Position numbers and translations under genes: made by a program. Shown piece after piece: positions 17,634 through 59,439 of a stretch of DNA of 64,000 nt. Position 1 is the first letter of the stretch. Every line of letters starts with the position of its first letter. The notes under the pieces are model-generated. The model saw only the letters and a program-made list of their open reading frames with translations, did no database searches and had not been told where the DNA came from. Source of the stretch: a virus; IMG/VR virus record IMGVR_UViG_3300033149_002985, positions 28,966 to 92,965 of that record; one strand, 5' to 3'.

Positions 17634-17663
17634 AGTATAACATACGCTTTAGAAGGCTGTCAA
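17634..17663 (-). promoter_or_regulatory. sigma70-type promoter TTGACA-N18-TATACT with TG extended -10
   Basis: Minus strand TTGACA gccttctaaagcgtatgt TATACT. Confidence 0.75.
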
Positions 17664-55213: not shown

Positions 55214-55684
55214 TTAATCTTTCGTTTTTGCTTCTTTAAGTTTGGATTCAAAATCATAATCATAAAGATATTTCAAATCATCATAATTCTGAATATCACG
55301 AACATTATCAAAAATTTCCCTTAATATCTTTCGGAAACCAGTTGCTTTGCCTGTTTCAAACATACGTTCATAATTTCTTTGATATCTTGCAAATTTTCCG
55401 TTCTTTAACCACGTATTACCATAGAGATTACAAACCTCATGTCGTAAATCCCTACTTAATAAACTTATATCTTTTAAAACATCACCAAATGTTTTTTCCT
55501 CTGTCTTCTTTTCTTTAATAATTTTAACTAAAGAACGGATTGTTTCACCACACCTTAAACTATTATTAAACTGCTTGAGTATCTCTTTAGTGTCTATTTC
55601 TGCCGTTTTCATTGAATCTACTTTAAGAGTTTCTTCCCACTCACTATGGGCGTCTTTTATGATACATCTTATTTCCATCGACAT
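55214..55684 (-). CDS. Hypothetical protein
   Basis: ORF track. Confidence 0.55.
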   Translation of the reverse strand: MSMEIRCIIKDAHSEWEETLKVDSMKTAEIDTKEILKQFNNSLRCGETIRSLVKIIKEKKTEEKTFGDVLKDISLLSRDLRHEVCNLYGNTWLKNGKFARYQRNYERMFETGKATGFRKILREIFDNVRDIQNYDDLKYLYDYDFESKLKEAKTKD

Positions 55685-55688
55685 CCTT

Positions 55689-56300
55689 TTATTCTTCTGC
55701 TCTTAATTTATTAATAATCTTTTTAGATTCTTTGCTTGATATAGACTTAGAAATTTCTGCCATCATATCATCTGCGCCTTGTTGATAAATTTTTCTTTCT
55801 ACGTCAGAATATTTATCACCGTTGCTTCGAATATATCTTTTACCTTTAGATATACCTCTTACTAAATCTCTTGCAACTCTTCCAGTGCCTCTTATAAGAC
55901 TAAAAATTGCACCAATAACCCAACCAAAACCACTCAAAGAAAGAGCTATCATTATAATAATTCCCCATAACACATAACCTTGAACATTTAAAATAAACTG
56001 TGAAATTTTTTCACGCCATCTTAATTTTCTTTCTTGTTGGTTAAAAGTCTTTTCATACGAATAATAATTTTGTCCGCATTTCAGAACTCTTCCCATAGAA
56101 TCTAAGATAATTTCTCCTTTACATTTGATCCTTTTTTCTGATTTTTCAATTTTTTCGGGAACTTTTGAAACGGTATTTTTGAAAGGTTGGGAAGCAATTT
56201 TAAGGAGGGAACAGCCTGTTAATGTAGACATAAAAATACATAACATCATTAATTGCAACATGTTATGCTTAAAAAGGTGGTAAATTTGATTTTTCATCAA
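55689..56300 (-). CDS. Putative lipoprotein with an internal TM segment
   Basis: Lipobox LTGC at about aa 27-30; hydrophobic stretch at about aa 108-135. Confidence 0.6.
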   Translation of the reverse strand: MMKNQIYHLFKHNMLQLMMLCIFMSTLTGCSLLKIASQPFKNTVSKVPEKIEKSEKRIKCKGEIILDSMGRVLKCGQNYYSYEKTFNQQERKLRWREKISQFILNVQGYVLWGIIIMIALSLSGFGWVIGAIFSLIRGTGRVARDLVRGISKGKRYIRSNGDKYSDVERKIYQQGADDMMAEISKSISSKESKKIINKLRAEE

Positions 56301-56428
56301 TTATCCTTACGTTTATGATGTAACTATATATAAATAAATAAGTTAGCAGAAAACTAGTGATAATATTAAAGACCTTTATTCTTACCTCTCGGAACGGTCA
56401 AAATGTGACTAGATTTTGCACTACTATA

Positions 56429-56460
56429 AGTATACCATACCTTGACCCAGGGTGTCAAGG
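56429..56460 (-). promoter_or_regulatory. sigma70-type promoter TTGACA-N18-TATACT overlapped by a CCTTGAC-N7-GTCAAGG inverted repeat
   Basis: Minus strand TTGACA ccctgggtcaaggtatgg TATACT. Confidence 0.75.
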
Positions 56461-56462
56461 GT

Positions 56463-56861
56463 TCAAGGGGTTTTTTTCAAAAAAATCAATTCAGTGTCCA
56501 TATAAGCCACTTTATAACCTTGTTCTTCCAATTCTTTTAAAGTTTTTTTTATCATATTAAGAGCAAAATCAGTGGTTTTCGATGCTTTTCCATATGCACT
56601 ATTTAACTCTACTTTGGATTTTTGCAAAAGAGCTTGTTCATGAATATTTAAATCGGGTAATTTCTTAGCACAAATTAAATGAAATCTCTTATAATCTTTT
56701 AAATGATATCCTTCTCCATCTGAGCTTCTAATCAATTGATCTCCATATTCTTTGACCCTAGCAAAACAACTTTCACCTATTACTATTTCTTTCCAACATT
56801 TATCACATTGCCAAGTTTTCTTGGCTTTAATAATATAAGTTCCAGTTTTATAATCGGGCAT
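56463..56861 (-). CDS. Zn-finger protein fused to a PolB motif B/C-like fragment
   Basis: CDKC...HLIC; KVELNSAYGK...GYKVAYMDTE; start reassigned to MPDYK (GGAG RBS). Confidence 0.6.
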   Translation of the reverse strand: MPDYKTGTYIIKAKKTWQCDKCWKEIVIGESCFARVKEYGDQLIRSSDGEGYHLKDYKRFHLICAKKLPDLNIHEQALLQKSKVELNSAYGKASKTTDFALNMIKKTLKELEEQGYKVAYMDTELIFLKKTP

Positions 56862-57112
56862 TTTTCTCTCCGTTTTTGAAATCATTATCAAACATTCCAT
56901 GAGTATCAAATATTATAATTCCTGGCTTTGTATCTTTTAATAGTTCATTTAATGTTTTTTCACATTTTTTTAACATTTGCTCTAATTCAAAATAACAAAT
57001 AATTTCATCCATTCTTCTAACTCCTTTAAGGAGGGTTAAAACCCTCTCTCCACCCTAAAAATTTTCTCCACAGATACGCCTTCTATCATTGAAAAATAAC
57101 ATGTTTATATGA

Positions 57113-57141
57113 ACGTAGTGAATATAATATATTCACTACGT
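57113..57141. repeat. Perfect 14-1-14 palindrome in the main non-coding region
   Basis: ACGTAGTGAATATA-A-TATATTCACTACGT; a further GTAGTGAAT copy follows immediately. Confidence 0.9.
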
Positions 57142-57242
57142 ATGTAGTGAATTATATACGTTAGTTTATTAATCAATGAATTATATAATATATACTGTAT
57201 ATACGCAGTTGTTCAATCAAATTTTCTTTTTTGTCTAATTAA

Positions 57243-57272
57243 AGTATAACATATTGATTGTCCAAGTGTCAA
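57243..57272 (-). promoter_or_regulatory. sigma70-type promoter TTGACA-N18-TATACT with TG extended -10
   Basis: Minus strand TTGACA cttggacaatcaatatgt TATACT. Confidence 0.75.
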
Positions 57273-58653
57273 TAGAAACAATAAAAATTTAAAAATCCAC
57301 CAAAGTAGACAATAAAAAAATAAACTAATTATACCTCCTACCATAAGGACTAAAGTTAAAAATATCCAATTAGTTGGGTATATGTAATTCATTTTAATTC
57401 TCTTTAATTTTTAATAATTTTACAATTTCTTTTTTATTTCCTGAATTTAATATTTCTTGTTTTTCTTTATATGATGGGGTCATTATATCGTAATATTTAT
57501 TAATTTCTTCTACTGGCACTTCACAAGAAACCGCCATTGGGGAAAATTTTATTTTAATCTCAGTCCCTTTTTTTATCTCCCATTTTTGGATTCTTTCTTT
57601 TAATTCTTGTGTTATCTGTATCCAAGTATCTTCATAACCATAAAAACTTACTTTCATCATATTACGAGATGGTTGATTTGCTAATCTAATAAAAATACAT
57701 TTTAATGAATGGATTAATTTAAGTTCTGTTTTTGGTATATTCATTATATAACCTCCAATTCTACTCGTTTAATAAGATAATCAGGTTTCTTTCCAAAAGC
57801 TCCTTTTGTAATAATTTTCTTCTTTTTTGATTTCAAAAATAAATGTTTAAATTTTAACTTAGCTGATTTTAATTGACCAATTTTTTCTTGGTTTTCTATC
57901 CTAGCTAATTCTTTTTTTACATTTGGTAATTCTGGGTGCTCTTCGAAAAACTTTTTCCTACGTGCTCTATTTTTCATTGAAGGTGGTGTTAATTTAATCA
58001 TAATTCTCCTTTTTAATCAAAATTAGATAATTATTATAGATTTTAAGATTTTTTAGTAACATACCAAATTTTTTGGTTTTCATCTCCTTGATTAATCATA
58101 ACTTTTTCTAAATATGATCTTGTTTTTAATGCTTGTACTAAATGAATTCTAAAATCTTTGCAAGAATTTTCAAAAGTAATTTTTAAACTTTCATTAATTG
58201 TAATGTTAGATAAATTTTCAAATATTTCATCATATTCTTTAGTTTTACTGTGATTTTTTCGATGAGGAATATCTGTTTTGTTTATTTTTTCAATTTGCAT
58301 AATATTTCTCCTTTATTTTTTATGATAATTTCTAAATTTTGATGAAGATATAGTTACAGAAATAGTTTGTTTTTCTAATATTGTTAATTTTTTTTCATAT
58401 TTAACTTTCTGTATAATATTTCTATATTTTATAATTAATTTTTCAAATCTTTTTATATTTTTTTTAAGACGATTGATTTTAATTATATTTGTTGGATCTG
58501 TAATAATAGTCATTTGAAGAGCATCTTTGTAAATATTAAATTTTTTCTGAGCAGAACAACTTCTTGAAAACATTGGATAAATATTTGTATCTGTGTTATT
58601 ATCCCAATCAAAATAAAAATCCATATTAAGTTTTTCATGTTTTCTATTCATTT

Positions 58654-59439
58654 TTATTTTATCTTTTTTAAATATTTTTTCTTTAATTCTTCTGTGCATA
58701 TTTTAAGATATTTTTGAGTAGATTTTAAATTTTTATGCCCAAGAAGTTTTTGGATTTCTGGAAGACTAAATCCTTCTTTTAATAACCATGTTGCAAACGA
58801 ATGACGCAATAAATAAGGTCGTAAATTAAAATCAGGAAAATGTTTTTTGATTTTTTCACACATTCTTCCTAATGCTCTTGTCGTGGTATTAAAAGCATTG
58901 GTTTTTTCATATTCCAAAATAAAATATATCTTCATTAAATCACTTACTTTTTCTGGAAACAGAAAAATATGTTCAGTTTTTGTTTTTTGCCTATAAATCT
59001 TTCCCTGTAAATTTTTTAAATCAAAGTTTTTCCTTTTTAAAGCAACAATTTCACCTGGACTTAATCCACTATAAAAAATTAAATAAAAAATGGCTATAAT
59101 TTTTTCATTTTTTCTCCAATTTTGTTTAATAATTGGAACAATTTCTTTTTCAAATTGTTCGATAGTAATAGCATCTACCAATTTTTCATCTTCATCTAAT
59201 GCTGGAGGCATTTCAATATCTATTTTTTTCCATTCTATATAAGCACAAATAGCATTTCGATAACAATTGATTGTTTTATTTACATGTGTTCCTTGTAATC
59301 CAAGTAAATATCTATCTACAGTTTCTTTAATAACGACATTATTAGTCGCTTTTAAAAAATCTCTTATCCTTTGACAATATCCTCTTCGAGTATTATGAGA
59401 TCGTCCTTTTAATTTTAACCAATCATTAAAATTATTCAT
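58654..59439 (-). CDS. XerC/D-like tyrosine recombinase (atypical active site)
   Basis: SGLSPGE, LRHSFAT, IQKLLGH, TQKY. Confidence 0.88.
   Translation of the reverse strand: MNNFNDWLKLKGRSHNTRRGYCQRIRDFLKATNNVVIKETVDRYLLGLQGTHVNKTINCYRNAICAYIEWKKIDIEMPPALDEDEKLVDAITIEQFEKEIVPIIKQNWRKNEKIIAIFYLIFYSGLSPGEIVALKRKNFDLKNLQGKIYRQKTKTEHIFLFPEKVSDLMKIYFILEYEKTNAFNTTTRALGRMCEKIKKHFPDFNLRPYLLRHSFATWLLKEGFSLPEIQKLLGHKNLKSTQKYLKICTEELKKKYLKKIK

Follow-up and report, generated by a model that had tools for sequence, protein, structure and literature searches.

A small phage zinc-finger protein with a probable captured fragment of a family-B DNA polymerase

The locus and its regulatory signals

The window, meaning the whole 64,000-nucleotide stretch analyzed here, covers bases 28966-92965 of a 92,965-bp viral record that is rated 99% complete and belongs to an uncultured phage. 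On its minus strand, a 132-codon frame that opens with an ATG at 56861 and ends at 56463 encodes P0001, a protein made of a zinc finger followed by a fragment resembling family-B DNA polymerase (PolB). The coordinates of this gene, its parts, and the features discussed with it are collected in Table 1. The start codon was confirmed by the homologues, which open with M(P/S/-)(D/E)YKTG, and the Shine-Dalgarno-like element in front of it reads as a good ribosome-binding site.

Table 1 Features of the P0001 locus and related genes, in window coordinates.
Feature	Position	Strand	Basis or remark
Gene for P0001, 132-aa zinc-finger/PolB-fragment protein	56463..56861 (stop codon included)	-	ORF listing and translation
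Zinc-finger domain, P0001 residues 1-82	56616..56861	-	CCHC: C19, C22, H61, C64
KVELNSAYG, residues 83-91, PolB motif B remnant (end of the fingers helix)	56589..56615	-	Match to KxxxNSxYG
PolB-derived palm helix and motif C hairpin, residues 93-130	56472..56585	-	YMDTEL in place of YIDTDS; BLASTP, PolB HMM, hhalign, PDB profile search
Shine-Dalgarno-like GGAGAG	56866..56871	-	4 nt before the P0001 ATG, read from sequence
54-aa ORF upstream of the P0001 gene	56848..57012	-	14-nt overlap with the P0001 gene start
Strong sigma-70-like promoter (TTGACA, 18 nt spacer, TG, TATACT)	57243..57272	-	~380 nt upstream of the P0001 gene; near-consensus, extended -10
Second promoter of the same type	56429..56458	-	Directly after the P0001 stop codon; serves the next gene, 55689-56300
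Tyrosine recombinase	58654..59439	-	Pfam Phage_integrase 3.6e-18; 1.8 kb upstream of the P0001 gene
P0002, full-length family-B DNA polymerase, 800 aa	36216..38615	-	Pfam DNA_pol_B 1.4e-30, exonuclease domain 3.4e-8

A preliminary description of this DNA had placed the gene just downstream of a strong promoter. The strong site does exist, but it lies ~380 nt away (57272-57243), with the 54-aa ORF in between. This ORF is probably co-transcribed with the P0001 gene; it matched no family and had no paralogue within the window, and its reading as a metallophosphatase fragment found no support. The small ORFs neighboring the P0001 gene are not fragments of other window genes either. The promoter pattern TTGACA-N15-TG-N-TATACT has three exact matches in the window (17634-17663, 56429-56458, and 57243-57272), all on the minus strand, where 0.03 would be expected, and these sites look like a phage-specific early-promoter class.

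Other signals were noted around the gene. A perfect palindrome of 14+14 nt (ACGTAGTGAATATA, one T, TATATTCACTACGT) occupies window positions 57113-57141, within the ~230-nt leader that runs from the promoter at 57272-57243 to the 54-aa ORF; 61 nt from it lies a partial direct repeat (57183-57209), and the palindrome looks like an operator or an RNA hairpin. At the other end of the gene, a 7-bp inverted repeat, CCTTGAC / GTCAAGG (56429-56470), overlaps the -35 box of the post-stop promoter and may act as a site for a regulator or as the stem of a weak terminator. The next gene downstream (55689-56300), which has this strong promoter of its own, encodes a 203-aa protein of no family with hydrophobic N-terminal and central segments that appear transmembrane-like by eye. 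An Rfam scan of 55500-58000 gave nothing above noise.

Genomic neighborhood

The genes around P0001 encode a FEN-type exonuclease, a tyrosine recombinase, a RuvB-like ATPase, RtcB, RecA, a primase-helicase, and PolB. In a complete 95.8-kb relative (G004), whose PolB is 46% identical, the syntenic position is held by an 80-aa finger without tail, in the order RuvB-like ATPase, small ORFs, tyrosine recombinase, and finger (locus L015). On a 1-kb metagenome contig (L004, 1-998), a tyrosine recombinase is followed by a form of the finger fused to a VRR-NUC domain. The tyrosine recombinase is thus directly upstream of the finger gene in two unrelated contigs (L015 8510-9817 and L004 1-998), and the two genes may be a functional pair. 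We also considered a homing-endonuclease origin, in which a mobile zinc-finger/VRR-NUC gene would have carried off its target sequence, and did not pursue it, as the gene stays beside the tyrosine recombinase in different phages.

The N-terminal domain belongs to a metagenomic phage family

The preliminary description had seen a CxxC...HxxC finger ahead of the tail, and this reading was borne out, with C19/C22 and H61/C64 as the two halves of the motif. An exhaustive HMMER search of 1.84 billion representatives returned 42 relatives of P0001, and what they have in common with it is an N-terminal stretch of ~80 residues and not the tail. Over 19 sequences, the four ligands C19, C22, H61, and C64 never vary, and neither do Y4, F33, R59, and E75. 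Family members come as the finger alone, as the finger fused to VRR-NUC, or as the tail-bearing form. Most are 75-110 aa long and consist of the finger alone, while in 11 of the 17 members that were read out the finger is followed by a C-terminal VRR-NUC nuclease, for a total length of about 200 aa; some others end in unrelated short tails. The VRR-NUC assignment was supported by the score of P0020 (25.9 bits, Pfam cut-off 23.8) and by the match of the family profile to the solved VRR-NUC nucleases 4qbo and 4qbn at 2e-6. Four long matches of the representative search (P0033, P0036, P0040, and P0041) turned out to be repeat proteins, not polymerases.

The family was then sought in other collections. 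A tblastn search of P0001 against 50,697 phage records gave only chance matches, and with P0020 as query only the VRR-NUC part matched cultured phages. Scans of viral and genome contigs returned no relatives, and the metagenome contig scan returned two 1-kb contigs with relatives, both without tail. The N-terminal 80 residues define a previously unannotated, metagenome-only phage family.

The AlphaFold2 (AF2) model of the finger, with a pLDDT of about 95, has three strands followed by two helices (E6-12, E31-44, E51-61, H62-66, and H73-81). When this model was searched with Foldseek, the zinc fingers of DNA ligase III and PARP-1 were the best matches (probability up to 0.99, E 0.01-0.1). A VIA wide search over 48,161 chains, independent of Foldseek, placed PARP-1 Zn1/Zn2 in all of its top six positions (Z 5.5-6.7 over 68-76 residues), and the ESM Atlas model retrieved zf-PARP clusters (structure rows with PF00645). 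A near-invariant arginine on strand 2 (R35) presumably lies about where the DNA-binding Arg34/Arg138 of PARP-1 is found, a placement made by eye. Neither Pfam nor a search of the family profile against the PDB gave a sequence-profile match of the finger to PF00645 or to the PARP/Lig3 chains of the PDB.

PARP-like fingers have been described as having CCHC ligands with 26-37 residues separating the second ligand from the third, and as sensing DNA nicks and ends (PMC3094755). The CCHC order and topology of the P0001 finger agree with this description, and its second and third ligands are separated by 38 residues, one above the published range (PMC3094755). The N-domain of P0001 is therefore predicted, at middling scores, to have a PARP-type zinc-finger fold; given these scores and the lack of a sequence-profile link, we speak of a PARP-type fold and not of a proven zf-PARP member.

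The C-terminal tail derives from a family-B polymerase

The preliminary description had aligned, by eye, the end of P0001 with the fingers and palm of the PolB encoded 36 kb into the window; the strings it quoted correspond to P0001 residues 83-129 and P0002 residues 452-511. This alignment proved sound. In a BLASTP comparison, P0001 residues 93-129 matched P0002 residues 475-511 with 15 identities in 37 positions (E 6e-6). When each of the four known tails was compared with PolB by Smith-Waterman against 2000 shuffles, three were never equalled and the fourth was equalled by 11 of the 2000, where the control, which was the zinc-finger half, did not stand out.

Profile methods led to the same result. 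A 68-position HMM spanning motifs B to C, built from 32 PolBs of the clade, was run against 510 sequences (466 window ORFs and 44 family members). It retrieved PolB, then the four tail-bearing proteins at 1.3e-6, 5.3e-6, 1.9e-4, and 0.07 (7.6-23 bits), and no tail-less relative rose above background. A full-length PolB HMM searched against the 2334 six-frame segments of the window found only PolB and the P0001 ORF (E 0.004, the next best being 1.8); only its positions 468-504 were aligned to this ORF, the remainder of P0001 being the zinc finger. The HHpred-type profile check that had been proposed came out in favor of the match: hhalign aligned the four-tail profile with PolB positions 474-514 of a 20-sequence PolB alignment with 95.3% probability (E 2.1e-8).

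An unbiased search gave family-B polymerases as well. Against 177,635 distinct PDB sequences, the tail-only profile placed them on top (5mdn at E 0.0018 and 1s5j at E 0.02, followed by KOD, Tgo, 9°N, Pfu, and E. coli Pol II), and most of the best 60 matches were family-B polymerases, all aligned at motif C. Searches of Pfam, PHROGs, and PDB sequences with P0001 alone gave nothing significant. Judged by these comparisons of sequences and profiles, the derivation of the C-terminal ~45 residues of P0001 from a family-B polymerase is confirmed.

What the tail retains and what it lacks

The textbook KxxxNSxYG reported for the fragment is present in P0001 as KVELNSAYG, at residues 83-91. Among the other tail-bearing proteins, P0004 has it too (KVQLNSTYG); P0003 and P0005 do have the tail, but lack the motif. 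Motif C, rightly described as degenerate, reads YMDTEL in P0001, its homology to motif C being supported by the HMM, hhalign, and PDB profile searches, and YQDTDS, YMDSDS, and YKDNSI in the three tail-bearing relatives. The acidic pair is thus not conserved over the four tails (DTDS, DSDS, DTEL, and DNSI). Five positions are invariant in all of them (G115, Y120, D122, and K129-K130), and each keeps the helix, the hairpin, and the hydrophobic pattern. Tail identity among the four proteins is 32-43%, compared with about 50% in the finger.

AF2 predicted the tail as a helix and two strands (H96-113, E116-121, and E126-130), whether or not VRR-NUC rows were present in the alignment, with a pLDDT of about 90 from a 19-row alignment and of about 70-80 from a 4-row alignment. 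Helix-strand-turn-strand is the arrangement of the motif C segment in polymerase palms. When the helix-hairpin was used for a structural search, the matches were all small and unspecific (Z 3-4). The pLDDT falls below 50 over KVELNSAYG, and the NSAYG stretch is predicted to be a disordered linker.

P0001 has no motif A (DxxSLYPS, with its catalytic aspartate), no 3'-5' exonuclease domain, and no thumb, and Pfam DNA_pol_B matched neither P0001 at E <= 1 nor P0003, P0004, or P0005 at E <= 5. The absence of motif A and of any other polymerase domain excludes catalysis. As read from its motifs, the fragment cannot polymerise, and its motif C has decayed to DTEL. The term "mini-PolB" used in the preliminary description, if meant as a polymerase-like entity, is hence too strong: of a polymerase, P0001 retains the end of the fingers helix, a single palm helix, and the hairpin of motif C and nothing more, and it has no Pfam DNA_pol_B score.

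A probable single capture from a polymerase of the phage's own lineage

Among the 42 relatives, only P0003, P0004, and P0005 carry the tail, which with P0001 makes four known tail-bearing proteins; all three relatives are encoded on contigs of less than 3 kb. A second search, with the four-member profile and a word index, added no further tail-bearing proteins. All four tails stop at the identical point, eight residues beyond motif C, and close with a derived ...(F/L)(L/F)KK, and a deletion of ~13 residues between motif B and the palm helix is common to P0001 and P0004. The common end point with its derived KK and the shared deletion suggest a single capture event followed by divergence. In the N-domain tree, P0001 and P0003 fall together (94/83) and the rest of the tree is poorly resolved. 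Downstream of the finger genes that stand alone in G004, L003, and L004, a search for tail remnants came up empty; one weak opposite-strand match (E 0.025) looks like chance.

The phage's own polymerase, P0002, has KTVVLSAWG as motif B and YIDTDS as motif C, in agreement with the non-canonical LSAWG ascribed to it earlier. LSAWG is also present in 27 of 32 relatives of the PolB clade, and NSxYG or NSxFG in the 5 more distant ones. LSAWG is thus a settled trait of a functioning polymerase lineage rather than a fault of P0002. For the palm part of the tail, the highest scores are those against the closest PolBs and the NSxYG sister clade; archaeal PolBs give the tail only about 17-21 bits. Taken with the motif pattern of the clade, these scores suggest that the fragment was taken from a PolB of the phage's own lineage. 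The source would have been either a PolB from before the N-to-L and Y-to-W change or a neighbor that never changed. The comparison supports the view that the tail, as a molecular fossil, keeps a canonical motif B since lost from the phage's working PolB.

Five of the PolB relatives (P0048, P0059, P0066, P0068, and P0077) are 1072-1202 aa long, compared with about 790 aa otherwise. P0059 carries Pfam intein-splicing and LAGLIDADG domains, and the window PolB has neither; the presence of these domains in P0059 indicates that mobile elements do invade the polB lineage.

Interpretation

The reading that we favor, and consider probable, is that P0001 is a two-part DNA-metabolism protein, in which a zinc finger is joined to a once-captured PolB fragment that has been kept as a structural, oligomerization, or docking module. 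P0001 would be a small phage protein assembled from two unrelated pieces. Going by its predicted fold and by the fusion partners of its relatives, the finger has broken, nicked, or branched DNA as its most likely target; the VRR-NUC partner would be a nuclease of the Holliday-junction-resolvase type, and P0001 would act within the recombination and replication functions of the phage. Illegitimate recombination would have brought in the PolB fragment a single time, its source being a PolB of this phage group in which NSxYG was still present, and four diverged lineages would since have preserved it as an open and folded helix-hairpin. On the zinc-finger protein it would now most likely serve as a small structural, oligomerization, or docking module.

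A retained structural role is favored over pure junk by the fact that the tail is open in four lineages and has kept its hydrophobic pattern. In a genome of 28% GC, a random frame of 50 codons stays open with a probability of about 0.008. The finger that stands alone at the syntenic site in the complete relative indicates that the core role does not require the tail. The non-conserved acidic pair, the loss of motif B in two of the four tails, and the predicted disorder also fit weak or relaxed constraint.

How far the tail itself is functional can be read in several ways. It could be a tolerated, functionless relic that decays slowly after an old recombination accident, only the finger being at work. 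This would agree with the frequency of stand-alone fingers of 75-90 aa, one of them at the syntenic site mentioned above, with the unrelated short tails on other family members, with the disappearance of motif B from two of the four tails and the decay of the catalytic residues, and with a tail that is less conserved than the finger. We nevertheless find such a relic doubtful, as all four lineages have kept the tail open despite a stop-rich composition, the hydrophobic pattern and five positions are invariant, the fold is confidently predicted, and the helix-hairpin core of every member still scores against PolB profiles. At the other extreme, the PolB-derived helix-hairpin may have been exapted as a functional module, which seems unlikely to us. 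Two copies might then pair as a palm-like (ferredoxin-like) sheet, so that a finger dimer would bridge DNA ends or junctions, or the helix-hairpin might dock the finger onto the phage replisome. A polymerase mimic would be a related idea: the tail would dock a break-sensing finger on PolB or the replisome, making P0001 the accessory subunit that had been suggested, or would act as a decoy for host defenses. Derivation from the phage's own polymerase lineage, the position of the gene in a replication and recombination region, and its early-type sigma-70 promoter are circumstantial points in its favor. The mimic is all the same distinctly improbable, since intact PolB holds the same element buried in its palm and would offer no obvious docking site, the fragment is only about 45 residues long, and the four members have not all kept the conserved surface residues of motifs B and C; we also know of no defense system that senses the motif B-C part of PolB.

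Two further readings concern the origin of the tail, and we give them very little weight. MAFFT and phmmer carry the alignment further, pairing the tail helix with the first VRR-NUC helix, and both elements start with a helix followed by a strand and have a GY(K)-type turn, such that the tail might be a collapsed VRR-NUC remnant with a coincidental likeness to PolB. The VRR-NUC HMM of the relatives, however, gives the tails 0.2-2.6 bits (E 3.7-21; 2.6 bits for P0001) against 7.6-23 bits with the PolB HMM, and the unbiased PDB search found PolBs and no nucleases, with hhalign at 95% for PolB, which makes this origin highly improbable. The preliminary description had also proposed a relic of a displaced ancestral polymerase, with the ORF as the remains, still in place, of a second polB that the present polymerase replaced. 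The ancestral NSxYG in the fragment and LSAWG in the resident PolB are what such a history would leave behind, but no other PolB-like segment exists in any frame of the window, the piece is fused in frame behind an independent, widespread zinc finger with the same boundaries in four proteins, and the syntenic site of the complete relative holds a finger only. The proposal was thus abandoned, its chance of being correct being close to negligible.

What is new here is a domain capture on a previously unannotated phage zinc-finger family, a finding of moderate importance. It provides a statistically supported case in which a phage would have grafted a fragment of a polymerase sub-domain onto an unrelated DNA-binding protein and kept it through long divergence, and illustrates how new phage proteins get assembled from pieces. 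The fragment, with its canonical motif B, also helps to date the LSAWG change in the PolB clade of these phages. The break-sensing finger module is best known from eukaryotic PARP-1 and ligase III. An unannotated viral family of predicted PARP-type fingers, often fused to VRR-NUC and found beside a tyrosine recombinase, bears on the prokaryotic or viral roots of this module. If the exaptation were true, a sub-domain fragment of a replicative polymerase would have been recycled as a protein-interaction device. The case is otherwise a modest curiosity, which leaves major concepts unchanged unless the tail proves functional on its own.

Comparison with known systems

The P0001 finger shares with the PARP-type fingers (PARP-1 Zn1/Zn2, DNA ligase III-alpha, and plant ZDP; PF00645) the CCHC order; the gap between its second and third ligands is likewise long, at 38 residues against the published 26-37. 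It differs from them in belonging to a viral, metagenome-only family, and in its partners, which are VRR-NUC or a PolB fragment and not a ligase or an ADP-ribosyl transferase. Compared with the VRR-NUC nucleases (PF08774; 4qbo and 4qbn), the family is of similar size and occurs in a similar setting of phage replication and recombination, with 11 of 17 finger relatives carrying the nuclease. P0001 itself has no VRR-NUC domain, however, and PF08774 had no match anywhere in the 93-kb phage genome.

The tail shares motif B, the palm helix, and the motif C hairpin with the family-B polymerases (PF00136, and the phage's own clade in particular); these elements follow one another in the same order and agree in predicted secondary structure. 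It amounts, however, to about 45 of ~800 residues, with a 13-residue internal deletion, and P0001 is missing motif A, the exonuclease, the N-terminal domain, the first fingers helix, and the thumb. Inactivated or fragmentary PolB derivatives include the archaeal inactivated PolB family, the inactive C-terminal PolB half of Pol epsilon, and split PolB genes. Like these, P0001 would hold polymerase-derived sequence that was kept after catalysis was lost, presumably in a structural role. Those derivatives keep whole domains or folds, whereas P0001 keeps only a helix-hairpin sub-fragment, placed on an unrelated DNA-binding domain.
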